Below are positions 7,563 through 27,906 of a stretch of DNA of 64,000 nt, piece after piece. Source of the stretch: Alphaproteobacteria bacterium (lineage in GTDB: Bacteria > Pseudomonadota > Alphaproteobacteria > Micavibrionales > Micavibrionaceae); assembly GCA_028282385.1 (NCBI GenBank), contig JANQIB010000098.1, forward strand, positions 4,502 through 68,501, in the 5' to 3' direction. The stretch's first letter is position 1. Every line of letters starts with the position of its first letter. The position numbers were made by a program, and so were the translations under genes. The notes under the pieces are model-generated. The model ran no database searches. It had not been told where the DNA came from and saw only the letters and a program-made list of their open reading frames with translations.

Positions 7563-8444
7563 ATGAAATCTCATTCAACCCTTTTCCTGATCGGCCTGAT
7601 ATTGCTGGGCTGGAGCAGTTATTCGATGGCTGACACGCTCTCGAAATACCTGTCCGCAAGCTACACGATCCCGCAAATCCTGATGTCCACCAGCTTTCTT
7701 GGATCAATTTTTGCCGGAAGCTGGATTTTTCTCAAAAAAGGTTTCAGGGGTTTCATAACGCCAAAACTAAAATGGCATGTGATGAGGGGCTTCATCATTG
7801 TGATTATCTCTTATAGTATCGTTCACGCTTTTTCCCTTGCGCCCATGGCAGATGTATATGGCATTACATTTACATCTCCTTTTATCACCCTGATTCTGAT
7901 TTATTTTATTTTAAAGGAAAAGATTGGATTTCACAGATGGCTGGCCGTGTTTATAGGATTCACAGGCGCCTTCATTCTAGCGGGACCGCAATTTGAAACT
8001 TTGAGCATAGGCCTTATCTATGCCGCTATCTCATCTTTTTTTATAGCTGTCACAACAATCATCATCCGAAAAATCGGCAAGGAGGAATATCTCCCTTTAT
8101 ATCCGTTCTTTCCCCTCATATGCATTTTCTTGTTTAACGCACCGATGGCAGTACCTCACTTTATTATGCCTCAGGGCCTCGATATCCTTTTATTTTTAAT
8201 TCATGCCTGTGTCGTCATGGGCGGTCTTTTAATGGTGACCTATGCGATCGCCCATATTGAAGAAACAGCTATTCTCTCTCCGTTTATTTATATTCAGATC
8301 GTCTGGGGAACCGTATTCGGCATTTTCCTGTTCGGTGATATCCCAACTTGGACAACAATTTTGGGGCTCATCCTGATTATCGGTGCAGGACTCTATTCAA
8401 TCTGGCGCGAGCATGTTCACTACAAAGAAGATCACTCATTATAA
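7563..8444 (+). CDS. EamA/DMT family transporter
   Basis: 293 aa with about 10 predicted TM helices arranged as two EamA-like halves. Confidence 0.75.
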   Translation: MKSHSTLFLIGLILLGWSSYSMADTLSKYLSASYTIPQILMSTSFLGSIFAGSWIFLKKGFRGFITPKLKWHVMRGFIIVIISYSIVHAFSLAPMADVYGITFTSPFITLILIYFILKEKIGFHRWLAVFIGFTGAFILAGPQFETLSIGLIYAAISSFFIAVTTIIIRKIGKEEYLPLYPFFPLICIFLFNAPMAVPHFIMPQGLDILLFLIHACVVMGGLLMVTYAIAHIEETAILSPFIYIQIVWGTVFGIFLFGDIPTWTTILGLILIIGAGLYSIWREHVHYKEDHSL

Positions 8445-9007
8445 CCGGGCCGCGCCATTGTTACATTTGACATTTTTGTTCCATGTGGAACATGTTCTTC
8501 TTCAATCAAATAAGACTTTTTAAATAATTTTTTATCTTCACTACGCTTGTAAACATATATTCCAAGAACCGACAACCCGACTGCCCAGATTGCAGACAGG
8601 GAAGACATGCCCTGTAAAACCGAAGCTGCTTTATCTGTTTCAAAGATAACAACGTAAGCCAGTCCGAACATCTGCGCCGCCCAGGTAAAAGCCATAAGAT
8701 AGCCGAATGTTGGACGCATCCGCCGTACATAAGGATCGTTGGAGGCGACTTCAGCGCGCAAAGACTGATTAACCTCAGCAATACCCGCCTGACGTTCTTT
8801 CATCGCCAGCTCAGCCATCGCTTCCGCATGACGGTTCGCTTCGGCCATTTGCTCATTAGAAATCAACCCGCCCGCCAGCGCCGCATCAAGTTCGCCAAGC
8901 GCGCGGGCCGCACTTTGCGCCGCCGGATGATCAATTTTTCCAATGGAACGGCCGATAATATCAATAATAATCGGCAGGCCGACTTTTGCTAAAATAGATT
9001 CCAGCAT
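8432..9007 (-). CDS. 3-TM holin of the GTA-release type (DUF3154 / GTA_holin_3TM-like)
   Basis: 191 aa. N-terminal LPIIIDIIG, a helical middle, then AEVASNDPYVRRMRPTFGYLMAFTW followed by hydrophobic helices. It lies next to the endolysin. The stop overlaps the convergent eamA-like gene by 13 nt. Confidence 0.6.
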   Translation of the reverse strand: MLESILAKVGLPIIIDIIGRSIGKIDHPAAQSAARALGELDAALAGGLISNEQMAEANRHAEAMAELAMKERQAGIAEVNQSLRAEVASNDPYVRRMRPTFGYLMAFTWAAQMFGLAYVVIFETDKAASVLQGMSSLSAIWAVGLSVLGIYVYKRSEDKKLFKKSYLIEEEHVPHGTKMSNVTMARPGYNE

Positions 9008-9009
9008 GT

Positions 9010-9501
9010 TTATGCCTCCACTAACTTATAAAAAATATGCCGCCCAATAATTATGACCGGCTCTTCGCCTTCCGCCCAGTAAGGTGAAACATAATCCGCA
9101 TGATAATGCGTTGCCCCTTTTGTCCGGTCAGGTAGAACGTTATTGACGGCGCGCCGGGAAATTCGCTGGCAGGTTACAAATTTCTTATCCTGCTCCGTAA
9201 CCGCAATAAGCTTGCGGTAATTCGGATCAGATCTGTTCCAGCAGGAAAACTGATAAGGTTTCTGGCATACGCTAATAATGTCATTCCCCCACCAATATTT
9301 TCCACCGCGCGCCTGTGCAACGCGCACACGATTCAGCACGACACTGGCAACTGCTTCCATACCCTCCAGGCTTTCCGCGCGCGCCTCTCCCCAGATTGTC
9401 CGGGCAAGCACATCTACCGCAAGCTCATTATAAAAAGAGACAGACTCTACTTCATCCGCTTCTTCTTTCGTGAAGAGCGGTTTTAAAAACCGTATAACCA
9501 T
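9010..9501 (-). CDS. cell wall hydrolase, SleB/Hydrolase_2 family (endolysin)
   Basis: LARTIWGEARAESLEGMEAVASVVLNRV...CQKPYQFSCWN is the SleB-type signature. Confidence 0.8.
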   Translation of the reverse strand: MVIRFLKPLFTKEEADEVESVSFYNELAVDVLARTIWGEARAESLEGMEAVASVVLNRVRVAQARGGKYWWGNDIISVCQKPYQFSCWNRSDPNYRKLIAVTEQDKKFVTCQRISRRAVNNVLPDRTKGATHYHADYVSPYWAEGEEPVIIIGRHIFYKLVEA

Positions 9502-9511
9502 TTAAATTTTC

Positions 9512-9835: not shown

Positions 9836-9849
9836 TCATAAATTTCCTT

Positions 9850-11340: not shown

Positions 11341-11348
11341 ATTAGAAA

Positions 11349-11657
11349 CTAATAATCTTTCTCTGTGCCAAGCGTTTTCATAGCGCCATCATATTCCTGC
11401 CTTGCTTCTGACAAACTTGCTTTGAGCAGCATATTATCTTCCATGCTTTCAAGGTTTTCATATTCAGCCAGCTTCAATAATAATTCGAGATGAGCTAAAG
11501 CTGCCCGGCAGGCTTTATGATGCTCACCAAACTCTTTAGACTCATTTGGAGCGATTTGACCTGAAAAATTCCGGTAAGAATTTACCGCTCTTGAAATTGC
11601 AACCGGTAAAAAGGTTGCAATTTTCCTGCGCTCCTGCGCATCAATCCGATCATCCAT
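11349..11657 (-). CDS. hypothetical protein in the small-terminase position
   Basis: 102-aa helical ORF immediately upstream of the large terminase, as T7 gene 18 is. Assigned by position only. Confidence 0.3.
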   Translation of the reverse strand: MDDRIDAQERRKIATFLPVAISRAVNSYRNFSGQIAPNESKEFGEHHKACRAALAHLELLLKLAEYENLESMEDNMLLKASLSEARQEYDGAMKTLGTEKDY

Positions 11658-11667
11658 ACTGAAAGCC

Positions 11668-13692: not shown

Positions 13693-13715
13693 AATGATCT
13701 CCTCTATAATATAAG

Positions 13716-14255
13716 TTATAACAGGCTAATAATGGAATTCGCGTTTCCTAAAAGCCCTTGCGCAAAGGAATTTGCATTTGAAACATTGCTCAGTTTTTGA
13801 CGCTCTTTTAGTTGTGTTTGCTGTAAAACATTCAGACGTTTACGCTGGGCCAGGTCAGTATCCAGGGCGTTGAGACGCAAGTTATCAAGCGCTTCACGCT
13901 CCTGCCTCTCCTCTTCTGATTCTTCAAACAAACCAAGCAAAACCGCCTGGGCTGAACCACCCGCATTTGTATCAATACCGCTTGCTCCAAATTTTGCGCG
14001 CTGACGTGCTGTTGCCCGCTTTAATGCATCACGACGTTCTTTTTCCGCCGATTCTGATTCAAGCTTGATTTTTTCACGTTCAAGCGCTGCGTTTTCTTTA
14101 GCTACACGCAACTCCGCCTGTTGTTTTTGTTGAAGCTCTTTAAGCGCAAGATCTTGCGCCTCACTCTGATCATTATACCCACTCACCGTATCAACAAGTC
14201 CTGACACAATGCTAAGCCCCTGTATCACCGGGGCGATACCACTCAAACCGGCCAT
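13716..14255 (-). CDS. coiled-coil virion protein candidate (internal/ejection protein position)
   Basis: 179 aa. A Gly/hydrophobic N-terminus is followed by a long charged coiled coil. It sits between tubular B and the tailspike. Confidence 0.35.
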   Translation of the reverse strand: MAGLSGIAPVIQGLSIVSGLVDTVSGYNDQSEAQDLALKELQQKQQAELRVAKENAALEREKIKLESESAEKERRDALKRATARQRAKFGASGIDTNAGGSAQAVLLGLFEESEEERQEREALDNLRLNALDTDLAQRKRLNVLQQTQLKERQKLSNVSNANSFAQGLLGNANSIISLL

Positions 14256-14277
14256 ATCAATCTCCTTTGATTTACAA

Positions 14278-16176: not shown

Positions 16177-16195
16177 ATTTACTCCTTTTCACACA

Positions 16196-16222
16196 TAAAA
16201 AAACCGCCCTCAAAGGGGCGGC
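16196..16222 (-). terminator. rho-independent terminator after 16247..16654
   Basis: On the minus strand: ccgcccc-tttg-agggcgg followed by TTTTTTAT. Confidence 0.75.
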
Positions 16223-16246
16223 TTAACAAAAATAATTTTTTTATAC

Positions 16247-16654
16247 TTATTTTTCACGCTCAATAGCTTTATCGGCCTGCTCAAAGGTCGCAATGAACAA
16301 ATCTTTAAAATAAATTTTCAAATCTGCGACAATATCTGATTGAACATCTTCGACTGTACTATCTGGACTAGAATTATGCTCATACTTGTTTTGATAGACT
16401 TCTTCGGCATACCTACGAATATATTGATCGCATTCTTTTATGGAATATTTTAGAGACCGGTTTAAAAGCACATCACGGTCTACAATCTTCGCTAGATTGT
16501 CTGACATAAAATCAACGGCTTTTTCTTCTACACACAATAACGATTTCTGCCTATAACCAGTCATATAAATAAGATCAGGGCGCAAAATATGAATAAGCGC
16601 CATTGTGTAGATAAACAAAAAAATCATAAATATTGAAATGGATTTTTTATTCAT
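16247..16654 (-). CDS. small N-terminally anchored protein, partner of the 180-aa PG-binding protein (immunity-like candidate)
   Basis: 135 aa. The TM segment is ISIFMIFLFIYTMALIHIL. The start overlaps the upstream stop (ATGA-type coupling at 16651-16654). The region is AT-rich by eye. Confidence 0.4.
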   Translation of the reverse strand: MNKKSISIFMIFLFIYTMALIHILRPDLIYMTGYRQKSLLCVEEKAVDFMSDNLAKIVDRDVLLNRSLKYSIKECDQYIRRYAEEVYQNKYEHNSSPDSTVEDVQSDIVADLKIYFKDLFIATFEQADKAIEREK

Positions 16655-17193
16655 ATAACACCATCATCATTTTCTCTCTGATGTTTAATAATTTCTTCCA
16701 TAATCTTAAATTGAGGATTCAATTTTCCCCCACTTTTTAAGAAGTCAAAAATCTTCTTATGGTCTTTTAGTTGCTCTATAAGATCTTTGACTTTTTCATT
16801 ATCTTTTAGATTATCCATTGTTTCCTTTAGAGAATCAAAGAAATTATCATCCTTACCAAAATCCGGCTTTCTTTCCGGCAAAGGCGGTTTCGATGGCTTC
16901 TTTGGTGGAATGGGGGGAAGTTCAGATTCAGGTGTATCATCGCTTTGAGTTTGTTTTAACACTGTATTCAAAGCAACTTCTGTTTCCCCGCCGGGGTTCA
17001 TAATCCGGTCCGGTTTAAGATCATTGTCATACTGAAAAGCTAAAATCGCATCGTCGAGCTCCCGGTCGATAATCCCGTTTTCAACCGGGCGGTTATAATA
17101 GCCGGCCTTCGAAAAAGCCCGCTTTGCCTGCAATACGTCTTCATCATCATTCTCCAGGTTATTTCCGACAGGGCGGTTTATTTTAAAACGCAT
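16651..17193 (-). CDS. peptidoglycan-binding-module protein with a PPLPERKPDF junction and a short variable C-terminal domain
   Basis: 180 aa. PVGNNLENDDEDV...GYYNRP..GIIDRELDDAILAFQYDNDLKPDRIMNPGGETE is PG_binding_1-like and paralogous to modules in 21466..23475. Confidence 0.6.
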   Translation of the reverse strand: MRFKINRPVGNNLENDDEDVLQAKRAFSKAGYYNRPVENGIIDRELDDAILAFQYDNDLKPDRIMNPGGETEVALNTVLKQTQSDDTPESELPPIPPKKPSKPPLPERKPDFGKDDNFFDSLKETMDNLKDNEKVKDLIEQLKDHKKIFDFLKSGGKLNPQFKIMEEIIKHQRENDDGVI

Positions 17194-17195
17194 TC

Positions 17196-17765
17196 CTACC
17201 CCCTCACATCAATCAACGTAAAGTTTTCAAGCCTGTTCGGACTATCCTGCTGCGCATCAACCTGACGCGCGGCGGCAAATTCCTTTTCAGCCATCCGGGT
17301 TAGCGTTTCAGCGCGTGATGTGCTTTCGGTAACCGGAATACAAAACTCGGCTGCCAAACGGGCTATCAAAGCCGTATCAAAGAACGGTGGAAACTCTTCC
17401 TCCTGAGGCTGATAAATATAAGTTAAAATAACTTCATCCGCATTAGCATGCAGCTGTCCTTGTAAAATACGGTAATGAAGCCCACGCCCTTTACCGCCAT
17501 TGCCGGCAGAAATGGCACGTAGAAAATCACTCGGCAGTTGAAAAGCGTTTTGATAATCTGCAAGCGGACTCTCGCTCAGCTTGTTTAACTCCACCTGCCC
17601 TGTTGCAAATGTCCAGGGATAAGCCGATAACAAAGCATCGCGCGCAGGCGCATAAAGAATCGAAGCAATTTCTGATTCTGCTGTGCCGTCATCAAATGAA
17701 CTAATCGGGGCGGCGCCAAGACGCACAAGCGCACGGCTGCAAAGCCCAACATCGTTGAGTGCCAT
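17196..17765 (-). CDS. tail tubular protein A-like (adaptor)
   Basis: 189 aa. MALNDVGLCSRALVRLGAAPISSFDDGTAESEIA...YPWTF parallels the T7 gp11 N-terminal pattern. Confidence 0.6.
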   Translation of the reverse strand: MALNDVGLCSRALVRLGAAPISSFDDGTAESEIASILYAPARDALLSAYPWTFATGQVELNKLSESPLADYQNAFQLPSDFLRAISAGNGGKGRGLHYRILQGQLHANADEVILTYIYQPQEEEFPPFFDTALIARLAAEFCIPVTESTSRAETLTRMAEKEFAAARQVDAQQDSPNRLENFTLIDVRG

Positions 17766-17789
17766 ATTTTTTCTCCTGTTGTTAATGAA

Positions 17790-17822
17790 TAAAAAAAGCG
17801 GCCTTATGGCCGCTTAAAAAAT
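17790..17822 (-). terminator. rho-independent terminator after 17839..18243
   Basis: aagcggcc-ttat-ggccgctt flanked by A and T runs. Confidence 0.8.
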
Positions 17823-17838
17823 ATTGGTTTCAAATTTA

Positions 17839-18243
17839 TTACGCTGCCAGCAAGGGTTCGTAACGTGGAGCGTTTTGCATTGAAGTTCCAAGGTTATAGT
17901 TTCCTGATCCCTCTCCTGCATGAGCTCGACGAAAATCCGTCATCATAAAATCTGCAACTTTAATCTGCGTAGTTTGCAAGTTTTGTGAATGCTCTTCTTT
18001 CACTTTTTCATTAGAATTAAGCATGTCATATACTGCCCATGCCTGTATTTCAGTGCCCCTAAAGACTGCTCCCTGAGGCGTATAAATAACATTCAAAATG
18101 CCGTGACGAGCAAAAGCTTCAGAAAGCTTTTCTGTTGGTTCTCTTTCTTCTTCAAAAGAAATATCTTCCGGACGCACACTGGCAGGAAACCCGCCGCTAT
18201 GCGGAATTGAATAATAACCCGTCTGCAATGCCTGCACAGACAT
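17839..18243 (-). CDS. hypothetical protein (moron-like, bracketed by terminators)
   Basis: 134-aa ORF with no recognisable motif. Confidence 0.4.
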   Translation of the reverse strand: MSVQALQTGYYSIPHSGGFPASVRPEDISFEEEREPTEKLSEAFARHGILNVIYTPQGAVFRGTEIQAWAVYDMLNSNEKVKEEHSQNLQTTQIKVADFMMTDFRRAHAGEGSGNYNLGTSMQNAPRYEPLLAA

Positions 18244-18329
18244 GAATATTTCACACCCTTTTTGTTTTTAGTTGATGATTTTCTAAAATATCAGCATTAC
18301 TAAAGACAAATTTACTTTCTAAACACTTG

Positions 18330-18381
18330 TTAAATAAAAGAAATTTCCGCCCTGACCCAACAGGGCCAAAAGGCGGAAATC
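18330..18381 (-). terminator. rho-independent terminator downstream of the capsid gene plus 79-aa gene
   Basis: On the minus strand: atttccgcc...ggcggaaat stem followed by TTCTTTTATTT. Confidence 0.65.
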
Positions 18382-18494
18382 CCGGTTAATACAAAACGGA
18401 CGCTTTCTCAAACGCGCCCAAAGACTGCTTTAGGGGGGTTCGTGAAGGGGAGGAAAAGTAGAACACTCACCTAAACAGTCCGCACACCCAACGA

Positions 18495-18734
18495 TTAGGC
18501 GTACACCGCAATCGTCACTGCGCCGCTTGTAATATCGGTCACAATATAAAATTTTGTGGCCGGCGTGCCGTCTGTATCAACATTCGCAATGATGAGGTCG
18601 TTGACATTCATCATATCGGCTGCGTTATCAAAGTAGTTAGCTGTGGTGACAGCATCATCAGCTGTTGTGTAATGCCACAGCGTAAAGTTGTTCGCATAAG
18701 CGAGCACACTTAAATCAGAAAGTTTTAAAGCCAT
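18495..18734 (-). CDS. small protein following the capsid gene (possible head decoration or minor capsid protein)
   Basis: 79-aa ORF starting 30 nt after the capsid stop. Assigned by position only. Confidence 0.35.
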   Translation of the reverse strand: MALKLSDLSVLAYANNFTLWHYTTADDAVTTANYFDNAADMMNVNDLIIANVDTDGTPATKFYIVTDITSGAVTIAVYA

Positions 18735-18764
18735 TGCTTATCTCCTTTTATGTTAGCTGTGGTT

Positions 18765-19607
18765 TTAAACAGGGGTTTCGTCACAATCGATAACGACAAT
18801 TCCTGTATCATCGACAAGAGCAGCGCCCTGACTCATCATATTGTTGACGAAATGCGCCGCACGATCTCCATGCCAGGTTACATCTGTTTGAACATCAGAA
18901 CCTGACGCATGGCCGATAGCCGTTTTGTGATAATAGAAACAGGAACGCACACCACCAGCATCTACCGGAAGTCCGGAATGCGGGATCCAGATCGTTCCAA
19001 GCCACATCTTGGCCTGTGTGATACTTGAATATGGAAGCTCCGTATTGCCAATATAGTCAGCATTGACGAACTCTTCGATTTGCAGCAAATCGCTCCATTG
19101 TTTCCAGCCGACGACTGCAAAACGCTGACCGTCATCCGGAACATCGGTATCCCCGAAAATTTCAAATGCTTCGAGGACTTTATCTTTCGTCAGACCAGTA
19201 TTCGCATCGGCAATTGTATTCGTAGACGCCGTTGCAAGCGCATCAATAACCAACTCATCGGTTTTACGGCCCAGCGCATGTGCACCGGCAGACGCAATCA
19301 CCTGACGTTCGTCATGGTTAATTTTCAGCTCATCCATTTTATCAACCCAGTCACCGGCATAAAAATCTTCAAGCAGACATTCAATGCTGGAGTGAGCCAG
19401 GTTCATCACAGGAACCATTCCGTGTGTTGACTTGGTCGAAGCCGTTCCCTTACCGACTTTTTGGAAAGTCGTTGAGGCGCCTTTAACATTGCCGACAGTA
19501 CGCACAGTGTTCCTAAGCTTGGACCCCTGGCGTTGATAGGCTTCGTGCACTTCGCGCTCGAACTGCTTGACGAAGGCCTGATCAATAGTGACAGACATAT
19601 TCTTCAC
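18765..19607 (-). CDS. major capsid protein (T7 gp10-like, short form)
   Basis: 280 aa. FVKQFEREVHEAYQRQGSKLRNTVRTVGNVKGASTTFQKVGKGTA mirrors the gp10 pattern F..EV..A....L...VR...G...F...G...A. The late YYHKTAIGHASG resembles FMHRSAVG. Confidence 0.7.
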   Translation of the reverse strand: MKNMSVTIDQAFVKQFEREVHEAYQRQGSKLRNTVRTVGNVKGASTTFQKVGKGTASTKSTHGMVPVMNLAHSSIECLLEDFYAGDWVDKMDELKINHDERQVIASAGAHALGRKTDELVIDALATASTNTIADANTGLTKDKVLEAFEIFGDTDVPDDGQRFAVVGWKQWSDLLQIEEFVNADYIGNTELPYSSITQAKMWLGTIWIPHSGLPVDAGGVRSCFYYHKTAIGHASGSDVQTDVTWHGDRAAHFVNNMMSQGAALVDDTGIVVIDCDETPV

Positions 19608-19926
19608 CTTTCGTAAAAGTTAAAATTTAGAGAAGTTCAGTTGCACGGGACTTTGGGTTGGCAGCCAGCAAATGCGACCGGCCCGTCACGGCAAACAGGT
19701 CTGCCCACAGGCGGCAATCATCTCAAAGAAGAGAAAAACCGTTTTCTGATCAGCAGATATAAATAGGGAAAAACCGCTACGTCGGCGGAATGGCAGAAGC
19801 CAAAAAGACGCAGTTATGGCGTTGATAACTCTACTTATAGGAATAATTTCTTATTTTGTCAAGAAATAAATTGCATTTTTTGCAAAAATCTTTATATATA
19901 TACATAATTAAAGATGGAGAGAGAAA

Positions 19927-20313
19927 ATGTTTACATCCCTCGCACGCGTCCTGAAAACAAGGGACTTTGAAAATCAGGCATCGAACCGTCGCATCGCGCC
20001 CCGGCGTGAGGTCGACCAGTGCGTTGGCATGATTGAGGGCAAAAACTATCCGGTCGAAAACTGGAGCGATACGGGCATACTCTTTGCCGGTAACGATAAA
20101 CTCTTTTCAATCGGAGAACCAAAATCCATCGACCTGAAATTTAAACTTGCCGAAAAAGTGATTACAGTTTCGCACCGGGGTAAGATCGTCCGCAAAGCCA
20201 AAAATAAATTTGCGATCGAATTTGAACCTCTCACCCGTGATATTCAAAACAAATTTCAACAAATCGTCGACGATTTCGTCACCCAGGAATTTGCCGACTC
20301 TCAGATGGTTTAG
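19927..20313 (+). CDS. PilZ domain protein (c-di-GMP receptor candidate)
   Basis: 128 aa. RRIAPRRE fits the RxxxR motif and NWSDTG fits the D/NxSxxG motif with appropriate spacing. It is on the opposite strand to the phage genes and has an AT-rich upstream region. Confidence 0.7.
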   Translation: MFTSLARVLKTRDFENQASNRRIAPRREVDQCVGMIEGKNYPVENWSDTGILFAGNDKLFSIGEPKSIDLKFKLAEKVITVSHRGKIVRKAKNKFAIEFEPLTRDIQNKFQQIVDDFVTQEFADSQMV

Positions 20314-20536
20314 TTTCCTCTCTAATCATCCGTCCCGTGGCATCGAAGATTGGTTTTTCTTTTGGAAGAGGCGGCGTGTCTTCGCTTTCCTCAAACGCGA
20401 AAGTGCCGTTTGAAGTAAAGACGGAGTTGCTTTCACTGCGCTCAACCCTGCCCGTTTCGGCAGGACTATTGGCATCAGCTTGTTGTTTTGCCTTTAACGT
20501 TTCAAGCGCCCCAGCACCAGATGCCCCGGTCTTGTT
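20279..20536 (-). pseudogene. orphan fragment of the 669-aa gene (central region through PPLPKEKPIFDATGRMIR), without a start codon
   Basis: Hand translation gives NKTGASGAGALETLKAKQQADANSPAETGRVERSESNSVFTSNGTFAFEESEDTPPLPKEKPIFDATGRMIREETKPSESRQIPG*. It is preceded by an in-frame TAA and has no ATG. Confidence 0.8.
20322..20512. repeat. direct repeat copy A (191 bp, 8 mismatches versus copy B)
   Basis: Aligned by eye against 22160..22350. There are no indels and the offset is 1838 bp. Confidence 0.9.
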
Positions 20537-20566
20537 TTATACCTAATTATTACTTATTCTACATTT

Positions 20567-21007
20567 ATGTTCAGAATAATTTTTATTGCTCTTGTGTTTT
20601 TTTCTTCTGCTACGCAAGCTGCAGAAGATTTCTGGGACAAACCGCCACACCCTAACGGGTGGTATGGTTATGATGAAACACTCCCTGATCTGCTGAACAT
20701 CAAAGGCTTAACCTACCATGAGGCAAGGCCCATTATCATTGGTGCCGGCTGGGAACCATTGCAAACTCTTCAGGAGGGCACACATGATTACGAACAAGGT
20801 ATAACCCTGTCCGGAGATGGCCCAAAGTTTTGGAACAAAAGTTATTATGAACTGCAAACATGCACTGGATCAGGTATGGCATACTGTGCTTTTCTTTTCC
20901 AAAACAAAAATGGCGACCGGCTTCGTATCGTAACTAAATATGAAGAGCATGAAGAATATTCATCTTTTGCTAAAGTCGCAGGCTACAGATTTATGCCCCA
21001 AGACTAA
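20567..21007 (+). CDS. secreted hypothetical protein
   Basis: 146 aa with the signal peptide MFRIIFIALVFFSSATQAAE. The gene is AT-rich and on the opposite strand. Confidence 0.5.
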   Translation: MFRIIFIALVFFSSATQAAEDFWDKPPHPNGWYGYDETLPDLLNIKGLTYHEARPIIIGAGWEPLQTLQEGTHDYEQGITLSGDGPKFWNKSYYELQTCTGSGMAYCAFLFQNKNGDRLRIVTKYEEHEEYSSFAKVAGYRFMPQD

Positions 21008-21204
21008 TTTTTCTCCAGAAAATCCTTTAAAGTTTTGAAATCAGTCAGCGCTTTATTGTTTAAAACGCCATCATAACGACTTTTATTTGAAGCATCTGGT
21101 GGAAGTGATGCCCATTCACTGGCTAATTCTTCTATCAATTTTTTCGTGCTGATTTTACCGGATTTATATTTATCAAACCCTCTGTATTCCAAAAGCCTAT
21201 ACAC
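21004..21204 (-). CDS. small ORF resembling the C-terminal part of a lambda-R-type (GH104) lytic transglycosylase; probably a gene remnant
   Basis: LASEWASLPPDASNKSRYDG..NKALTDFKTLKDFLE compared with lambda R CSNIWASLPGAGYGQFEHKADSLIAKFKEAGG. The N-terminal catalytic part is absent. Confidence 0.3.
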   Translation of the reverse strand: MYRLLEYRGFDKYKSGKISTKKLIEELASEWASLPPDASNKSRYDGVLNNKALTDFKTLKDFLEKN

Positions 21205-21252
21205 TTCATATCTTTGATAAAAAAGACAGCCTAAAAATCAGCGGTACACTTT

Positions 21253-21453
21253 CTAGTAAGCTAAAAACAATCCCACAACTATTGCTAAAACCATAAGGCT
21301 CAGAATACATCCGGTAAAGGCTCCTAGAAAAACACCTCGCCAAACAGGTTCCTGTTTCCTTGCAAAAGAAACACAACCGACTAACGCCCCTACAACCATC
21401 AAGAAGAAGAGAAAGAAAGCCGTTAACATTTCAATATCAAAAGAGCCATCCAT
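21253..21453 (-). CDS. two-TM small membrane protein directly downstream of the 669-aa gene (immunity-like candidate)
   Basis: 66 aa with two hydrophobic helices (FFLFFLMVVGALVGCVSF and GAFTGCILSLMVLAIVVGLFLAY). The gap after the upstream stop is 12 nt. Confidence 0.45.
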   Translation of the reverse strand: MDGSFDIEMLTAFFLFFLMVVGALVGCVSFARKQEPVWRGVFLGAFTGCILSLMVLAIVVGLFLAY

Positions 21454-21465
21454 ATTCTGAAACCC

Positions 21466-23475
21466 TTATTTGTTTTCTTCAGCATCCTCCCATGTTAGTC
21501 TTGGATTTACAAGCTCGCCTCCTTTGATCTGGACAGTACCTGTCACTTTTTGTTGCCATTGAGAGTTTATATCAAAACTTTTTGCGCGCCCTTCTTTTTC
21601 AAGAATGGTGGCCCCTCCTCCTCCACTTTGCAAAGGGTCAAAATTGTATTTATCTGTCCATTGATGAGTGACCGTACCATCAATCAAAATAGTATTTCCT
21701 TTTCTTTTTACTTTAAAGTCACCTCCAGACTTAACAGAACTTGTTCCTGTTGCCAAAGCTTCATCCAAATCCCCCTTCAAAAGATGACTTCTGGATAGAT
21801 CTGCATTACGAATCATCGTTTTAATTGGAAAATTTCCAACTTTATAATCCCAATTATCTTTCACTTCCATTACTTCATCCTCTTTCATATTTAACAATTT
21901 AGAGCCTATACCTTTCTTGTCTGTGAAAGATTTTGTGAATCTATCTCGGTTAACTCTTTCTCCATTACGCACAAAAAGCTTTTCACGAACCTGATCTCGA
22001 CTAAGCGCCTTATCTTCTCCTGATCCGTCTAAAAAATGCTCCAGATTATCTGCCGCTTCATTTAAACCTTTTTTATGTCCTTGATCTACATATTCTCTAT
22101 AAACATTTTCAATTGTGTCCAAATATTTTTCTTTATCGTAGCCTCCAAGCTCCTCCTTCCTAATCATCCTTCCCGTAGCATCGAAGATTGGTTTTTCCTT
22201 TGGAAGAGGCGGCGTGTCTTCGCTTTTCTCAAACGCGAAAGTGCTGTTTGACGTGAAGACGGAGTTGCTTTCACTGCGCTCAACCCTGCCCGTTTCGGCA
22301 AGACTATTGGCATCAGCTTGTTGTTTTGCCTTTAACGTTTCAAGCGCCCCGGACGGTCCGCCCGTTTCACCGCCGCCGTCAAACAGGCCAGACGCCGCAC
22401 TGCCCAAACTCCCGGCCAGCCCCTGCGCCGCCTGTGCCCCCGATGCAACGGCAGGCAGGATTTCATTGATTTTGGTCAGCACATCACCGTCGCTCTCCAG
22501 AGCGTCTTTCGTATTAAAGAAAGCCTGCGTGCCGCTTAAGGCCTGGGATGCAATCCCGGCAATCGGCCCGCCAACCGCGCTCAATCCCATCGAAACAACA
22601 GGCGCAAAGGCGTTAATCTTATCCGCTGTTGAACCTTCACCTTTAACGGCATCGATAACACCTTTAACAAAAGACGCAGCTTGAGCAAAAGCTTGCTGTG
22701 TTTTTTCCTCGCCTTGCAGGCGCATAACATTTTTTATAGCTTCAATACCCTGCTCCGTCTCACCGCCCGGGTGAACCAGTCCATCCTCTTTCAGACCCAG
22801 TTGACGTTGAATATTCTTAATAGCATCGCTCGTTTCCCGGTCAAGAAAGCCTGTCGGGTCACTGAGTTTATCTTTTGGCAAAAGTCCAAACTCTCCCAGC
22901 CTGCCCTGAAGGCCGATCACATCACGCTTGCCATTTTCAAGGTTATTTCCAACAGGACCTAAAAGTATGGGTTCCCTGACATTTATCAGGATATCGTCAT
23001 CTTCTTCAAAACCATTTTCCGGCTCACGTGGGAGATAACCGTTTTCTAAAATACGATCATACCAACCAGTAATACCTTCATCCAAATCATCATCTTGTTT
23101 TTCCATGGTGCGCAACGGTGGTGGTTTATCCGTATCAAGCATAATTGAATGATGTGGCTCATCGAATTGTGTAGATTCGTCTGCCTCAAGTGTCTGCATT
23201 GTCTCCCCATCTGGCTTGATGATCCCGTCAACTTTCAAGCCCTTATCTTTTTGATATTGTTTGATACCATCGAACAGTGCTTCGTCCGTATAGGGCGTGA
23301 TGCCGTAATCGGGGAGATCGTAATAACCGCGCGAGCGTAAAGCGTCTTTAATTTTCAAAACATCTCTACCGCGCGCCGCGCTATTGGAAGAAATAATATT
23401 ACTTATTCTTAACATTGAAAAAAACCTCTTAAAAAAATCCCCCGCGCAGGGAATGCGCGAGGGGAAGTTGCTCAT
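21466..23475 (-). CDS. modular protein: two peptidoglycan-binding modules, a Gly/Ala-rich region, a PPLPKEKPIF junction and a ~230-aa C-terminal domain of unknown function
   Basis: 669-aa ORF. An AAGAGG Shine-Dalgarno favours the internal ATG at 23415 (649 aa). The PG_binding_1-like segments are GRDVLKIKDALRSRGYYDLPDYGI..ALFDGIKQYQKDKGLKVDGIIKPDGET and PVGNNLENGKRDVIGLQGRLGEFG...SDAIKNIQRQLGLKEDGLVHPGGETE. Confidence 0.65.
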   Translation of the reverse strand: MSNFPSRIPCAGDFFKRFFSMLRISNIISSNSAARGRDVLKIKDALRSRGYYDLPDYGITPYTDEALFDGIKQYQKDKGLKVDGIIKPDGETMQTLEADESTQFDEPHHSIMLDTDKPPPLRTMEKQDDDLDEGITGWYDRILENGYLPREPENGFEEDDDILINVREPILLGPVGNNLENGKRDVIGLQGRLGEFGLLPKDKLSDPTGFLDRETSDAIKNIQRQLGLKEDGLVHPGGETEQGIEAIKNVMRLQGEEKTQQAFAQAASFVKGVIDAVKGEGSTADKINAFAPVVSMGLSAVGGPIAGIASQALSGTQAFFNTKDALESDGDVLTKINEILPAVASGAQAAQGLAGSLGSAASGLFDGGGETGGPSGALETLKAKQQADANSLAETGRVERSESNSVFTSNSTFAFEKSEDTPPLPKEKPIFDATGRMIRKEELGGYDKEKYLDTIENVYREYVDQGHKKGLNEAADNLEHFLDGSGEDKALSRDQVREKLFVRNGERVNRDRFTKSFTDKKGIGSKLLNMKEDEVMEVKDNWDYKVGNFPIKTMIRNADLSRSHLLKGDLDEALATGTSSVKSGGDFKVKRKGNTILIDGTVTHQWTDKYNFDPLQSGGGGATILEKEGRAKSFDINSQWQQKVTGTVQIKGGELVNPRLTWEDAEENK
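22160..22350. repeat. direct repeat copy B (inside the 669-aa gene, codons ~375-439)
   Basis: See copy A at 20322..20512. Confidence 0.9.
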
Positions 23476-23480
23476 GAAAA

Positions 23481-24116
23481 TTAACTATAGAGTTTCTGGA
23501 AGCCTTCTGTGACCTTGGCAATGAAAGACGGATCTTTATCTCTCCAGTAACGCGGATCGCGCATCATCGATTGCAAGTCGAGCTCGGCGCCGTCTGGGCC
23601 ACTTTCGCCTTTAGAAGTCTCTAGACCAGGCTCCTCACCCTTCATCATATTATGAAGTGCGAGTATGCCCTCAAAGGAGCTGGCCAACGTATCGAGGACA
23701 TCCTCAGGCAGTTGTTTTTGACCAAAGGCTAAAAGCTGCCGTGACATTTCAGCCCATTTTTCGGGCCCACCAAAATGGTTGACAAGTTTTTCAATTTCCC
23801 GGTCAGCTTCGTAATCGGAAGCCATTTGAACAATCATCGGCACCATTTTTTCTGCTGCCAAATCGTAGATAAACTGCACTTGATCTTGGGTAAATCCTTT
23901 CTGATGAAGCCGTTCATTCAACTCCTCATCAGCATCAAACAGACCGTGCTTACAATCCACACAATATTCTTTGGCGCTTTTGGGAGGCCGGGGCTGACGT
24001 GAAAATCTCTGTTCAAGTTCGTTATAAGATTTTACAAGGTTATCAAGATTTACATTACCTGTTTCCGGATCTTTAAACTTTTCCGGAACAGAAGTTTCTA
24101 AAAGTGTTTCAGTCAT
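23481..24116 (-). CDS. capsid assembly scaffolding protein
   Basis: 211 aa. VPEKFKDPETGNVNLDNLVKSYNELE is the typical podovirus scaffold N-terminus. The protein is acidic and helical and lies downstream of the portal gene. Confidence 0.65.
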   Translation of the reverse strand: MTETLLETSVPEKFKDPETGNVNLDNLVKSYNELEQRFSRQPRPPKSAKEYCVDCKHGLFDADEELNERLHQKGFTQDQVQFIYDLAAEKMVPMIVQMASDYEADREIEKLVNHFGGPEKWAEMSRQLLAFGQKQLPEDVLDTLASSFEGILALHNMMKGEEPGLETSKGESGPDGAELDLQSMMRDPRYWRDKDPSFIAKVTEGFQKLYS

Positions 24117-24146
24117 TATTTTCTCCTTTGATTGAAATATTAAAAT

Positions 24147-24428
24147 TTATGAATTCCGGCCACGGTCAATCATGCGCATGATGGTAGCAACCAAGGTACG
24201 CTGCCCTTCGGAAAAACGAATTTGTTCATCCGGCGTTGAGCCGCCCTGAGCGCGCTGAAATGTTATCACCTGGAGCCAGGCCAGTGCTTTTTTGCCATCT
24301 TCCGTAGAAAAGGTTCGGGTCAAAATCCGTTCGATTTCTTTTTGCTCAAGGCGTGACACATGAGCCGTATAGGTAAGCCCCTTTACGGCTTCTGATAAAT
24401 CTGATCTTCGCTTATGAAATAGTCTCAT
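24147..24428 (-). CDS. small conserved phage protein following the portal gene
   Basis: 93 aa. The start overlaps the portal stop by 17 nt. It has a FSTEDGKKALAWL...EGQRTLVATIMRMI pattern. Confidence 0.4.
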   Translation of the reverse strand: MRLFHKRRSDLSEAVKGLTYTAHVSRLEQKEIERILTRTFSTEDGKKALAWLQVITFQRAQGGSTPDEQIRFSEGQRTLVATIMRMIDRGRNS

Positions 24429-25944
24429 TTTGCACCTCCTGTGTTGGTATAATTTCGGATAGAGGAATTTCTTTTTGAATTAAATCACTTGGTACACCCA
24501 GCGCCTCTCCAAGAAATTGGGCCGCCCTTGGCATATTGACGCTCAGAGCTGCTTGAGGCCCCATAGCAATCACTGATTCAATCCATGTGAGAGTATTTTG
24601 AACGGATCGTTGCCCTTGAGCACGAGCAAGCGGCGAACGATAATCCAGAACAACATAACGGCCATCAAGCGCAATGTCAGGAATTTCACCGCGCCTTTTC
24701 AGAATATTGAAAGCTCTTTTCACAAGCGGCGTTAAAAGCTCTGATTGTAAGCGGCCATAAGTCGCTCCCAAGATCAGCGCCATTTCGGCTGAACGCTCAA
24801 GCACTTCAGTTGCCGTCATACGCCGGTCGTTCATTTGGCCTAACTTATCAGCCAATAAAGCATGGCGAATCCGGCTACGCAGATCATTCAGAACAAGTTC
24901 GGATACATCAAAACGCGCCGGCATTTCCAAAGGCTTCAACCCTTGTGAACCCACGGCTTTGGGAATAATAGCTCCCGGAACCAGTTCAATATTTGCTGGA
25001 TTCAAAACCCCGTCATCATCAGCCTGCCAAATTCCTGTTACAGAAATTGAAGCATTTTTAAGAATAAGTTCAACAACCTTATTGGCTGTCTTGATATCTG
25101 GTAAAGCTTTCATCACTGGAGAACGTCCGTAGATCTCTCCCGGCGATTTCATCCAGCGAAAAGAAATTGCCGGATTATCACCAAATCGGCCTTGTGCTAA
25201 AAGCGCATTCTGGCCCCCCTCAAAAAGAAGCGCAGTATAATTATATACGCCTTCTTCTGGCAGAATAAATTCTAGAACCTTAAAGCGTGATTGCGTATCT
25301 TTTTCACCACTACCTATTATTGACGGCGAAATAACGGCAAAAGGATAGCGTGATTTTATTTGTGTTAGCGTGAGTTCGATTTCACGGAATATCGTATCAA
25401 GAAACCCATTTTCGCCTTCTTCTAAAACAGCATTTTGCAGTGGAACAGCCGAAAATTTAAAGGCAGATAAAGATCCTGGCTCCGCCTCTTCAAACATAAG
25501 TGTTGCGGTTCCGCCAACAACAAGATCCAGGAAACATTGGTGCAGCTCAACGCTAAAATTTGAATGATCAAAATGATCTTGAATAATCTTAGCACTCTCT
25601 TCCAGGACTGGCGCCAGCTTTTCAGCTTCCGCCGGAGACAGATCAGGTCCTGGCTTAAAACCAAACCATTGTGTCCAGGGAGGTGTTAAATTACCCAGTA
25701 AACTTGCTGCAAGCTGATCAACCGCATCCAGCGCCGTACCATCATAAAGTTTGTCTGTACGCTTTCCGCCTATAACAGATGACCCAATAAAATCACCGCG
25801 CTGGGGCAGAGCATAGTCGTAGCATTCCTGCCAGTGTGTTTTCCAAGTGTTATGGCGCTCTCGTGATTTATTATAACGTTCTATTAAATCACTATAATCT
25901 TTCAAATTGTCCTGGCGGTGTTGCTCTAAATTAACATTATTCAT
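24412..25944 (-). CDS. portal (head-to-tail connector, T7 gp8-like)
   Basis: 510 aa, positioned upstream of the scaffold gene. The N-terminal helical YNKSRERHNTWKTHWQECYDYALPQR pattern is typical of podovirus connectors. Confidence 0.7.
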   Translation of the reverse strand: MNNVNLEQHRQDNLKDYSDLIERYNKSRERHNTWKTHWQECYDYALPQRGDFIGSSVIGGKRTDKLYDGTALDAVDQLAASLLGNLTPPWTQWFGFKPGPDLSPAEAEKLAPVLEESAKIIQDHFDHSNFSVELHQCFLDLVVGGTATLMFEEAEPGSLSAFKFSAVPLQNAVLEEGENGFLDTIFREIELTLTQIKSRYPFAVISPSIIGSGEKDTQSRFKVLEFILPEEGVYNYTALLFEGGQNALLAQGRFGDNPAISFRWMKSPGEIYGRSPVMKALPDIKTANKVVELILKNASISVTGIWQADDDGVLNPANIELVPGAIIPKAVGSQGLKPLEMPARFDVSELVLNDLRSRIRHALLADKLGQMNDRRMTATEVLERSAEMALILGATYGRLQSELLTPLVKRAFNILKRRGEIPDIALDGRYVVLDYRSPLARAQGQRSVQNTLTWIESVIAMGPQAALSVNMPRAAQFLGEALGVPSDLIQKEIPLSEIIPTQEVQNETIS

Positions 25945-25948
25945 ATTT

Positions 25949-26224
25949 TTACTCTCCTAATAAACTTTTTCGTGATGGCGCCTCATCCGATAACCCAAGC
26001 ACCCCCCTAAACCCGCTTAAAATTGTTCCAATACGGCTACGGTCACGCCTTAAAAGATTCTGCGTTCGGTTTTCAGATTTTTGTTCATCAGTTAAAACTG
26101 TCGTATCTTCAGCTTCACTTGAAGTATTTGAAGATTCTACCGTTGTCTCTGTTGATGTATTTTGCGGCACATAAACTATTTGAGGCTGCGTAGGGGCCCG
26201 CGGGGTTATGCTTCTACTTCCCAT
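25949..26224 (-). CDS. small Ser/Thr-rich phage protein
   Basis: 91 aa. The C-terminal RRDRSRIGTILSGFRGVLG...KSLLGE resembles the RRGR.STILT motif of small podovirus virion proteins. Confidence 0.35.
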   Translation of the reverse strand: MGSRSITPRAPTQPQIVYVPQNTSTETTVESSNTSSEAEDTTVLTDEQKSENRTQNLLRRDRSRIGTILSGFRGVLGLSDEAPSRKSLLGE

Positions 26225-26235
26225 TTTTTTTCTCC

Positions 26236-26655
26236 TTATACTGTTTCGAATTGAAATGATTTCACCTGTTTAAGGTGTTTATAGAGCTGCCAAGGCGTAT
26301 AAATCAGGCGCTTATGAACGCCTATCAAACGTTTTACAGCCTCAACGCACGTAAAAATCATAAACGGCGCAGGCTTTTTTAGATCTCTGCAGATCGGTGT
26401 TGAAAGGACTGTTTGGCCTTGTTGCTCAAGCCAGCCCGGTAAATCAAAGTTGATCGGCACATGATGATGGATTGCCACTTCAGTCAGATGAGATAAAGGA
26501 TCTATACTCGCCCAACGCTTTCCATCATTCAGCAATACATAGCAATGGCGAAATCCGGGTTTTAAAATCTTAAGCCAGCCAATATCTGTCCGTCCGCTAA
26601 AGACAACCCAGGCCTTCTGGTTCAACAAAAACTTATCAGAATAATCATCACTCAT
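26236..26655 (-). CDS. hypothetical protein (second gene of the cluster)
   Basis: The ORF opens at 26712. The ATG at 26655 (MSDDYSDKF) overlaps the upstream stop (TATGAGTGA), which indicates translational coupling. Confidence 0.45.
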   Translation of the reverse strand: MSDDYSDKFLLNQKAWVVFSGRTDIGWLKILKPGFRHCYVLLNDGKRWASIDPLSHLTEVAIHHHVPINFDLPGWLEQQGQTVLSTPICRDLKKPAPFMIFTCVEAVKRLIGVHKRLIYTPWQLYKHLKQVKSFQFETV

Positions 26656-27136
26656 AACAAGCTCCATAAATATGTGATGAATTCTGAGCCTGATCGTAAA
26701 TAACCGCACCATGAATCCAATATTTGTTAGGATTAGGAGCTGTTAGTTTTTTAAAACGCACGATTTTTTTTTGAATAAGCATTGGCTCCAGCCGTTCGAA
26801 TGCTTCTTCCCAGAGCTTATGTGCCCTGACCTCTTTGCTTCGATTAGGATCAGGCGCCATCTGCCGCCGGCCATAATGGCGAAGAACCAGGAGGTGATCC
26901 ATGCTCAACCGCCTGGATCTATAAAGCCGGTTAAGGATATTCAAAATATCACCGGGCTCACATGGCCGGGGAGTAGCACTCAGGCCACTTACAAACCTGG
27001 CTCCATCGACTCGCGCCTGCTGCGCTGTTATGAACCAAAACCATGCCTCTAACGCATTTTCAAATGGCACAGATTCCTGGTTCACGCATGATTTTGGGAT
27101 ATATTTGCTCTTATCACTCATTTCTACATATTCCAA
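26648..27136 (-). CDS. hypothetical protein (first gene of the cluster)
   Basis: 162-aa ORF next to the divergent control region. I could not assign a family. Confidence 0.45.
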   Translation of the reverse strand: MEYVEMSDKSKYIPKSCVNQESVPFENALEAWFWFITAQQARVDGARFVSGLSATPRPCEPGDILNILNRLYRSRRLSMDHLLVLRHYGRRQMAPDPNRSKEVRAHKLWEEAFERLEPMLIQKKIVRFKKLTAPNPNKYWIHGAVIYDQAQNSSHIYGACYE

Positions 27137-27143
27137 TTTTTAG

Positions 27144-27174
27144 CAAAAGCAGGATTTATGTTCTGCTTTTGTTC
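27144..27174. promoter_or_regulatory. candidate operator: GTTC-N7-GTTC (alphaproteobacterial SOS-box form) overlapping a 9-bp inverted repeat
   Basis: GTTC at 27160-27163, tgctttt, then GTTC at 27171-27174. The inverted repeat is CAAAAGCAG (27144-27152) and CTGCTTTTG (27163-27171). The site lies 24-38 nt upstream of the first cluster gene and about 85 nt upstream of the divergent repressor. Confidence 0.5.
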
Positions 27175-27258
27175 TATTTATGGGGCAACTTCACGCCCAT
27201 GTCAAGGAATTTTTTCCTAATGCTGTAAGAGACGTAGGATGATATACCTACAGACATT

Positions 27259-27906
27259 ATGCTAACACACGAAAATATCTGGACTGCAATTGACCGTTTA
27301 GCGGCAAGCTTTGGGTATTCTGCCTCCGGTCTTGCAAAACAGGCAGGACTTGACCCCACCTCTTTTAACAAAAGTAAACGAATAAGCCCTGAAGGCAAAC
27401 CCAGATGGCCTTCTACAGAAAGTATATCGCGTATTCTAACTGCCACAGGCGCAACGATGAATGATTTCATAGCACTCATCGATTCTGACGCCAGTACTCA
27501 TTCAAATAAAGCGGAACAAACCCTTCCGCTTATTCATTTTACACAGACCAAACAAAAAGAAGTTTTTGATAAAAACGGAAACCCAACCGGAGATTTATGG
27601 GACCATGTACAATTCCCGGATATGGAGATGAATAAGACTAATATTTTTGCCATTGAAGTAAGTGGTAATTCACTGATGCCGCTATACCGGAACGGAGATA
27701 TTCTGATCGTTTCTCCAAACGCCCCTATCCGTCGCGGTGACCGTATTGTGATAAGAAACGCAAAAGGAGTTCTCTCTGTTCAGGAGGTGCTTAAAAAGCA
27801 AGCCCGGAAACTTGATCTAAAATCTGTTTGCGCAAAGAAAAAAACCATATCATACACATCAAAAGATATTGACTGGACCGCACGCATTCTCTGGGTTAGT
27901 CAATAA
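27259..27906 (+). CDS. HTH plus S24 (LexA/CI-like) peptidase-domain repressor
   Basis: 215 aa. The N-terminus is IWTAIDRLAASFGYSASGLAKQAGLDPTSFNKSKR (HTH). The C-terminus is IFAIEVSGNSLMPLYRNGDILIVSP...GDRIVIR....VQEVLKK (S24 Ser/Lys pattern). Confidence 0.8.
   Translation: MLTHENIWTAIDRLAASFGYSASGLAKQAGLDPTSFNKSKRISPEGKPRWPSTESISRILTATGATMNDFIALIDSDASTHSNKAEQTLPLIHFTQTKQKEVFDKNGNPTGDLWDHVQFPDMEMNKTNIFAIEVSGNSLMPLYRNGDILIVSPNAPIRRGDRIVIRNAKGVLSVQEVLKKQARKLDLKSVCAKKKTISYTSKDIDWTARILWVSQ

Follow-up and report, generated by a model that had tools for sequence, protein, structure and literature searches.

A candidate polymorphic envelope toxin with exchangeable C-terminal domains in the head-assembly operon of an alphaproteobacterial virus-like particle cluster

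In a 64,000-nucleotide stretch of DNA from an alphaproteobacterium of the family Micavibrionaceae (contig JANQIB010000098.1), to which we refer as the window, we have characterized a gene on the minus strand (21466..23415) that resides between the scaffold and capsid genes of a podovirus-type particle cluster and encodes a putative effector. The gene and its relatives combine a modular architecture with variability delimited by a conserved junction, orphan modules, co-variation of payloads with partner genes and a link to a particle cluster. The swappable tail and the partner gene point to a new toxin family of Alphaproteobacteria that is tied to virus-like particles. We assign a probability of about 0.6 to the interpretation that the gene and the ~3 kb following it constitute a polymorphic envelope toxin/immunity locus inserted into a head-assembly operon, whose product would be delivered by particles. 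In the following, homologous proteins carry P numbers and the loci that were compared carry L numbers.

The open reading frame (ORF) of 669 codons that had been noticed in a preliminary description of this DNA is found at 21466..23475 and runs on the minus strand, which had not been stated there. The encoded protein is probably 649 residues long, because a ribosome-binding site precedes only the second ATG (M21, at position 23415, with the Shine-Dalgarno sequence AAGAGG ~9 nucleotides upstream) and because the starts of two homologues agree, with P0001, which is 100% identical to the effector, and P0002 both beginning at this codon. The first ATG is located 5 nucleotides past the stop of the scaffold gene and has no such site. 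Only five full-length homologues of the effector were found. In the 669-residue numbering used throughout, the protein contains two PG_binding_1 modules, detected by Pfam (PF01471, E = 6e-16) in two stretches, the better at residues 35–94 (23194..23373, minus strand) and the second at residues ~171–244 (22744..22965, minus strand). Residues 35–96 and 171–244 each match the same peptidoglycan-binding region of relatives, the latter in L016, L001 and L004, and a match to a PHROG endolysin family covers residues 181–268 of this region. Both modules had been recognized before, as had the Gly/Ala-rich stretch that follows (22321..22683, minus strand), a conserved and moderately hydrophobic middle module, which is 63% identical to the equivalent part of P0003 and P0004 and which is lacking in P0002, in P0005 and in the L016 genes. 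Its content of glycine, alanine and serine amounts to 45%, compared to 24% in the whole protein, and it contains 23 small-xxx-small motifs. The hydrophobicity of the protein is highest in this module, which has a best Kyte-Doolittle mean over 19 residues of 1.5 and thus contains no clear transmembrane helix; an AlphaFold2 model of the module calculated from four sequences was unusable (predicted local distance difference test (pLDDT) 44). The effector sequence carries no signal peptide.

The carrier part ends in a junction with the consensus PPxPxxKPxFDATGRMIR, where DATGRMIR occupies residues 432–439. The motif FDATGRMIR has no match among the families or profiles searched. The preliminary description had proposed a variable domain beyond this junction, and identity between homologues indeed collapses exactly after it: the 60 residues preceding DATGRMIR are 59–66% identical to P0003, P0004 and P0005, whereas the sequences following it are unalignable (global scores ≤10). 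The opposite pattern is found in P0002, with 40% identity before the junction and 65% after it. At the level of the DNA, the GC content drops exactly at the junction from 0.49–0.50 in the N-terminal part and in a repeat that includes the junction to 0.37 in the C-terminal domain. This direct repeat of 197 nucleotides, whose copies are 95% identical and which is far beyond chance, had been missed in the preliminary description. Its first copy, located inside the gene (22154..22350, minus strand), encodes ...GALETLKAKQQ...TPPLPKEKPIFDATGRMIR and marks the position where homology to other family members stops, while the second copy (20316–20512) is located downstream as part of an orphan junction fragment (20279..20512, minus strand), which reads ...FDATGRMIR with 13 further codons before a stop and which abuts the 3' end of a PilZ gene. 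Judged from the sequence, the junction is a recombination point at which C-terminal payloads are exchanged.

Five types of tails follow this junction: GH108, assigned by Pfam, GH24, assigned by Pfam and PHROG, a lysozyme-like type, a transglycosylase-like type and the domain of the window protein, which we term CT_X. The lysozyme-like tail of P0004 matches PHROG 'endolysin' and virion lysozyme families found in large virion proteins (E = 1e-19), and the transglycosylase-like assignment is weak (PHROG E = 2e-3). Two labels based on motifs, 'SLT' for the tail of P0003 and 'lambda-lysozyme-like' for that of P0004, were not confirmed by Pfam or by a sequence search of the PDB; PHROGs lend strong support to the lysozyme-like label of P0004 and weak support to the 'SLT' label of P0003. 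Since most of the alternative payloads are muralytic, the putative toxins would be aimed at the cell envelope.

The tails co-vary with the genes that follow them. In the window, CT_X is succeeded after 12 nucleotides by an ORF for a 66-residue protein with two predicted transmembrane helices (21253..21453, minus strand), whose presence and spacing are as described before and which we consider a candidate CT_X immunity protein. In 5/5 loci (the window, L002, L016, L017 and L109), CT_X is directly followed by such a homologous ORF of 63–71 residues, which succeeds CT_X only and not the lysozyme tails, and more divergent copies of CT_X (L025, L110) are followed by other membrane proteins. The lysozyme-like tail pairs with a secreted protein carrying the motif 'YHEAR..GW.P' (L001, window, L016, L109), the GH108 tail with a Cys-rich secreted protein (L002, L016, L109) and the transglycosylase-like tail with a protein containing multiple transmembrane helices (L004, L025, L001). 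As far as can be predicted, this layout of tails and partners is that of a polymorphic toxin/immunity system. The earlier proposal that the protein carries exchangeable C-terminal payloads like a polymorphic toxin thus gains support from the five tail types, from orphans, from the co-varying partners and from the occurrence of CT_X on Rhs and DUF4157 proteins.

The window also preserves traces of a previous exchange. Behind the two-transmembrane protein, an ORF of 66 residues at 21004..21204 (minus strand) encodes the last 63 codons of a lysozyme-like tail and is 60% identical to residues 690–752 of P0004 (E = 7e-25). It is followed on the opposite strand by a gene for a secreted protein of 146 residues (20567..21007, plus strand), a candidate immunity protein for the displaced tail, which is 68% identical (E = 4e-72) to the product of a 141-residue L001 gene located convergently right after the P0004 tail and which has paralogues after the same tail type in L016 and in an immunity island of L109. 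From these matches it follows that the window retains the stump of a displaced payload together with its partner gene. Orphans are also found elsewhere. L016, L013 and L025 belong to a single contig with at least seven modules, including several orphans that begin at the junction, and in its L025 part (8057–11903) the scaffold gene is embedded within the toxin array and has modules on either side. In L002, which is syntenic with the window, an orphan reading 'EEPVFDATGRMIRDEE...' is joined to a GH108 tail and has retained only the junction. In L109 (10241–13641), five immunity-type genes form an island downstream of the effector P0156 and its two-transmembrane partner. All partner families are represented in it, and one of its genes encodes a 287-residue protein in which two different partner domains are fused.

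Scanning 185,579 species genomes for the DNA pattern of the junction yielded 15 stretches, which, except for four chance matches (L006, L014, L015 and L018), are all located in metagenome-assembled genomes of Alphaproteobacteria. Among metagenome contigs, six loci were found, of which one duplicates L016 and one is a new MuF-type copy, the others being chance matches in unrelated proteins. The IMG/VR viral contigs contained no match to the pattern. The exact sequence FDATGRMIR is also found close to the N-terminus in MuF-like minor head proteins (CxxC...HPNCRC) of L005, L008, L012 and L020 from gut Alphaproteobacteria including Candidatus Enterousia, whose C-terminal parts are lysozyme domains of the GH108 or GH24 type. 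The motif is therefore more than a boundary preceding toxins and may serve head-internal proteins as a signal for docking or processing. As a separate observation, a muralytic-type protein of 166 residues in L019 (6351–6851, minus strand) carries the motif at its C-terminus, ending exactly with ...KRKPVFDATGRMIRD before the stop; its domain matches PHROG 'endolysin'/tail injection transglycosylase families, and 17 nucleotides separate its gene from the tailspike gene that lies downstream in this related cluster.

The C-terminal domain of the window protein, CT_X (230 residues, 21469..22158, minus strand), had been left without a family assignment, and our searches of Pfam, NCBIfam, PHROGs and PDB sequences found no significant match and thereby also none to a muralytic family. 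An exhaustive HMMER search of representative clusters defined a CT_X family of 491 representative clusters; among the 150 that were listed, nearly all carry the domain at the C-terminal end. Within a set of 108 members, it is combined with PG_binding_1 in 30 proteins and with the DUF4157/eCIS-core domain (eCIS, extracellular contractile injection system) in five, and a single member (P0072) places it behind an Rhs core (TIGR03696). In light of these contexts, CT_X is a predicted toxin-type domain. In an AlphaFold2 model of high confidence (pLDDT 94.9), the N-terminal part is helical and precedes a sheet of long strands. Searches of the PDB and BFVD with this model by Foldseek identified no match at E ≤ 1e-3. 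The best hits (E ~1e-2, TM-scores ≤0.35) are the long-β-strand proteins HA70, Pap31 and RNA-phage maturation proteins, which were judged irrelevant.

A distant resemblance connects CT_X to colicin M. The CT_X profile matches colicin M and PaeM, a relative from Pseudomonas, in the PDB with E = 0.1–0.5 in two collinear motifs, LEHFLxGSG aligned with AHYLWGNG and HxWxDxYDF aligned with SYDDKYDF, the latter being part of the active-site stretch of colicin M. We have compared CT_X with A4, an alignment of four colicin M family members obtained from annotated records. Using hhalign, CT_X (A3) aligned to full-length A4 with a probability of 20% (E 1.1e-3, score 30.7) over 138 columns, which are collinear and span the catalytic domain of colicin M. 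A deeper CT_X alignment of 108 sequences matched the catalytic domain of A4 with a probability of 55% (E 1.2e-4, score 36.9) over 69 columns, compared to a score of 12.4 ± 2.2 and a maximum of 22 in 150 column-shuffled controls, of which none (0/150) reached 36.9. Members of the colicin M family share the motif DxYD(x5)HR, whose five named residues are all essential in colicin M (PMC8469651). The DxYDF part is retained in the CT_X family, with D169 being invariant and Y171 and D172 present in at least 90% of the sequences. In the copy of the window, the motif reads DKYNF (21640–21654, residues 169–173 of the domain), and the asparagine is also found in 3/30 aligned members; this copy may have an altered or reduced activity. 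Besides these comparisons, the segment of colicin M around AHYLWGNG matches the PDB entry 5i8l_A, a 'Lysozyme' of 145 residues, at residues 55–94 (E = 2e-5), and therefore the 'HYLxGxG' element may be common beyond the colicin M family. Separately, a divergent CT_X in an L025 module carries the motifs 'RHYLGGSG' and 'DRYDF', which are closer to colicin M, and is followed by a 135-residue protein with multiple transmembrane helices that is reminiscent of PmiA-type immunity proteins.

The connection to particles is provided by the genomic surroundings. The effector gene starts 5–65 nucleotides past the T7-type scaffold gene (23481..24116; Phage_T7_Capsid, E = 5e-14) and is encoded, like this gene, the portal gene (25944–24412) and the major capsid gene (18765..19607; Phage_capsid_2, E = 7.5e-81), on the minus strand. 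It opens a scaffold-capsid gap of 3,873 nucleotides (23480..19608), in agreement with the ~3.9 kb of extra DNA noted before. These genes are part of a podovirus-type cluster of ~19.5 kb resembling a gene transfer agent (GTA) (8432–27906), whose order is S24 repressor, three small genes, portal, Bbp19-like protein, scaffold, toxin locus, PilZ, capsid, tail tubular A, a 180-residue PG_binding_1 protein, tail tubular B, gp14-like protein, tailspike, large terminase, Hydrolase_2 and holin. Modules of the family adjoin the scaffold gene in the window, L002 and L025 and precede tail tubular B in L017 and the tailspike in L019, a recurrence within the cluster that is far more frequent than expected by chance for a target of ~19 kb. 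The 180-residue protein (16651..17193, minus strand; assigned by Pfam), located between tail tubular A and B, resembles the toxin carrier: its N-terminus is 41–47% identical to the N-termini of P0003, P0004 and P0005, and its linker 'PPIPPKKPSKPPLPERKPDF' of the PPxPxxKP type is similar to the prefix of the junction. We regard it as the probable ancestral virion protein that gave rise to the carrier.

In the mechanism that we propose, a carrier composed of two peptidoglycan-binding modules, the Gly/Ala-rich module and the FDATGRMIR junction would exchange its payload by recombination at the junction together with the partner gene. Earlier payloads of the window would have left the three relics, the lysozyme tail fragment, the gene of the secreted partner and the second copy of the junction. 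CT_X, probably a remote kin of the lipid-II-cleaving domain of colicin M, would act from the periplasmic side and be neutralized by the 66-residue two-transmembrane protein encoded 12 nucleotides downstream. Being produced along with head proteins and without a signal peptide, the effector could travel as cargo of the particle to neighbouring cells and enter their periplasm upon release, and those with a matching immunity gene would survive. Its presence in particles is plausible, with indirect support from the recurrence of family modules inside the cluster, the paralogy of its N-terminus with the 180-residue protein of the tail module, the junction motif in MuF-like head proteins, the missing signal peptide and the separate lysis genes of the cluster. 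A more far-reaching scenario, which we regard as tentative and rather doubtful, would turn a vertically inherited GTA-like podoviral particle into a protein-delivery weapon, with peptidoglycan-binding carriers loaded into heads, perhaps docked through FDATGRMIR, and unloaded in the periplasm of adjacent cells, where their exchangeable cell-wall toxins would kill those without the matching immunity gene. A novel branch of the colicin M superfamily, for which no structural neighbour is solved, would be among these toxins.

Several results weigh against a particle-delivered envelope toxin. Toxicity, target, immunity and packaging are properties that we infer. No particle genes are found near the family loci L001, L003, L004 and L109 within the stretches examined, a tblastn search of 50,697 phage genomes with the whole effector identified no homologue, and the toxin family is absent from the scaffold-capsid gap in all viral-contig clusters that show both genes (0/56), which makes the gene an accessory insertion instead of a core part of the virion and implies that the particle does without it. 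The gap collects ordinary host-type genes such as PilZ and GGDEF-EAL proteins, as would a hot spot for cargo. On the side of the payload, the relation to colicin M is statistically modest: none of 30 CT_X members matches Pfam Colicin_M even at E ≤ 10, and colicin M is not among the 50 best Foldseek matches of the CT_X model. There is no HR five residues past DxYD, so that this half of the family motif is missing, and the asparagine of the window copy aligns with the essential D229 of colicin M (PMC8469651). With DxYDF kept, HR missing and an asparagine in the window copy, we have kept CT_X outside the colicin M family and consider it a probable remote relative with an envelope target.

Among other explanations, the one that survives best, although we consider it unlikely, describes the effector as bacteriocin-like cargo of a permissive gap that is co-expressed with the particle genes, not packaged but released upon lysis by holin and endolysin and that enters target cells by itself like bacteriocins of the colicin M type. 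The behaviour of the gap as a cargo hot spot (with PilZ in 27/80 loci and GGDEF-EAL in L066) would be expected in this case, as would the absence of the gene from most related clusters, the existence of standalone chromosomal loci and the presence of a holin and a hydrolase in the cluster itself; an arrangement of this kind is found in EU982300, a phage-like record from Pseudomonas fluorescens Q8r1-96, where a colicin M-like gene adjoins a holin. Against this reading, neither a receptor-binding nor an outer-membrane translocation domain was recognized in the effector. It would also not account for the location of family modules at three different positions of the same structural cluster, the paralogy of the carrier with a protein of the tail module and the appearance of the junction motif in MuF-like head proteins.

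We regard it as improbable that the effector is instead a virion-associated protein for the degradation or penetration of peptidoglycan that assists the delivery of DNA, whose catalytic tail is shuffled between related elements and whose partners would be superinfection-exclusion factors against incoming particles of its own type. Lysozyme- or transglycosylase-like tails account for four of the five types and belong, according to PHROGs, to families within large virion proteins, the PG_binding_1 modules are present, the cluster is devoid of gp15/gp16-type proteins and periplasmic or membrane-embedded partners would suit the exclusion of an ejected lysin. Still, related clusters work without the gene and standalone loci exist, arrays of at least five modules with orphans and islands of orphan partners typify antagonism loci and CT_X is shared with Rhs and DUF4157 toxins. 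The specific proposal of the preliminary description, a repurposed pilot protein equivalent to gp15/gp16 of T7, was correct in that no large ORF of this type is found in the cluster; the equivalence itself was rejected, as the effector shows no similarity to T7 core proteins in Pfam or PHROG and the gene is absent from the gap in 56/56 related loci. Finally, the architecture of an N-terminal PG_binding_1 part and a C-terminal catalytic domain recalls modular Gram-negative endolysins, and the PHROG endolysin-family matches through the peptidoglycan-binding region and the small two-transmembrane protein downstream as presumed holin would fit, but we rejected this reading as very improbable since separate lysis genes at 8432–9501 already reside beside the terminase gene, CT_X matches no muralytic family and is found on Rhs proteins, proteins of 649–812 residues with extra modules are too large, the two-transmembrane protein is found after CT_X only and orphans form arrays.

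The closest known concept to a particle-delivered envelope toxin is provided by the MuF polymorphic toxins of temperate phages (Jamet et al., 2017; PMC5576092). As in these systems, a conserved N-terminal part is encoded in a phage-type head or packaging module and followed by a variable C-terminal toxin domain and an adjacent immunity gene, with delivery by particles having been proposed; the gene of the window, located between scaffold and capsid on the same strand, and those of L002 and L025 are placed alike. Unlike MuF toxins, the window protein lacks a MuF domain (PF04233), with Pfam finding only PG_binding_1, and MuF-like signals are confined to other motif-bearing proteins (L012). The host is an alphaproteobacterium and not a Firmicute, the payloads would target the envelope and the cluster is a T7/BPP-1-type podoviral module devoid of replication or integration genes.

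Comparable features are found in further systems. Colicin M family members are lipid II-degrading bacteriocins that have been described as polymorphic toxins (PMC5821083, PMC8469651) and whose immunity proteins include proteins with multiple transmembrane helices (PMC5821083). They share with our system the presumed cell-wall target, the membrane-embedded or periplasmic immunity partners encoded next door and the shuffling of domains with other toxins, whereas CT_X contains an extra helical part at its N-terminus, has neither a TonB box nor a receptor domain and is accompanied by a two-transmembrane protein of 63–71 residues that is none of the named types Cmi, PmiA and BmiA. Similar to Rhs and CdiA loci, the variable tail begins after a conserved demarcation motif, a conserved upstream stretch is retained in orphan tails and immunity genes follow, and P0072 even is a genuine Rhs-core protein with CT_X; in contrast to these loci, the window is devoid of YD repeats, of a VENN or PxxxxDPxGL motif and of a type V or type VI secretion context. 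The idea of a capsid-carried protein that acts on the periplasmic peptidoglycan of the recipient relates the system to T7 gp16 and phiKMV-type internal proteins, and the cluster encodes a borderline T7 gp14-like protein (25.5 bits, compared to a cut-off of 27). It differs from those in the absence of sequence similarity, the position between scaffold and capsid, its dispensability in relatives and the exchangeable tails with immunity-like partners. Prophage-encoded polymorphic toxins of the Bxa type have been described in Bacteroidaceae (PMC11699363), where a conserved N-terminal domain is likewise fused to diverse toxins with cognate immunity proteins. Their N-terminal domain is unrelated, they belong to a different phylum and the Bxa payload is a cytoplasmic ADP-ribosyltransferase.

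Both the naming and the understanding of polymorphic toxins rest on their delivery domain, with MuF toxins (mostly from Firmicutes) and the Bxa type of Bacteroidaceae being the phage-borne examples so far. The carrier described here, with its PG_binding_1 modules and the sharply conserved FDATGRMIR junction, matches no described delivery domain. It comes with a set of payloads apparently aimed at peptidoglycan and possibly lipid II, with a widespread toxin domain whose confidently predicted fold has no solved neighbour in the libraries searched and with a family of tiny two-transmembrane immunity candidates, all of which are tied to a small and conserved GTA-like podoviral cluster. Should the effector be delivered by the particle, domesticated virus-like elements would serve antagonism as well as gene transfer, which would offer a testable answer to the question of how phage-encoded polymorphic toxins reach their targets. 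If it were to act as a weapon, it would constitute a particle-based toxin route of Gram-negative bacteria that is distinct from tailocins, type VI secretion and contractile injection systems.

The cluster itself looks like a vertically kept, GTA-like podoviral element. It contains no integrase, replication genes or tRNA and is flanked by housekeeping genes, of which those on the side of the repressor (NAD kinase, SAICAR synthase, RodA and PBP2) recur in L002. Relatives of the capsid protein with 66–82% identity are found on 398 IMG/VR contigs, many of which measure ~18 kb, and the tailspike is 50–72% identical across low-GC and high-GC hosts. No description of a podovirus-type GTA cluster of this kind was found in the literature searched, with PMC10386132 treating other podoviral lineages. 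Its lysis genes (8432..9501, minus strand) encode a Hydrolase_2 enzyme (9010–9501; PF07486, E = 4e-20) and a holin with three transmembrane helices of the family 'GTA_holin_3TM' (8432–9007; PF11351, E = 7e-9), and the 649-residue protein is therefore not the endolysin of the cluster.

In the 56 related loci, the gap between scaffold and capsid measures 150–300 nucleotides in some; among the closest relatives, most have a gap of ~700–1,100 nucleotides that contains only PilZ, and in others it extends to 2.3–4.5 kb with other cargo. The PilZ-domain gene of the window (19927..20313, plus strand; assigned by Pfam) is a neighbour located outside the toxin locus and, being found on the opposite strand at the same site in the related loci counted above, is the ancestral occupant of the gap. 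In L066 (3666–6068), the gap contains a gene for a protein of 800 residues, which, from reading its sequence, is a GGDEF-EAL candidate. Such cyclic di-GMP genes in the gap hint at a tie between particle production and cyclic di-GMP.

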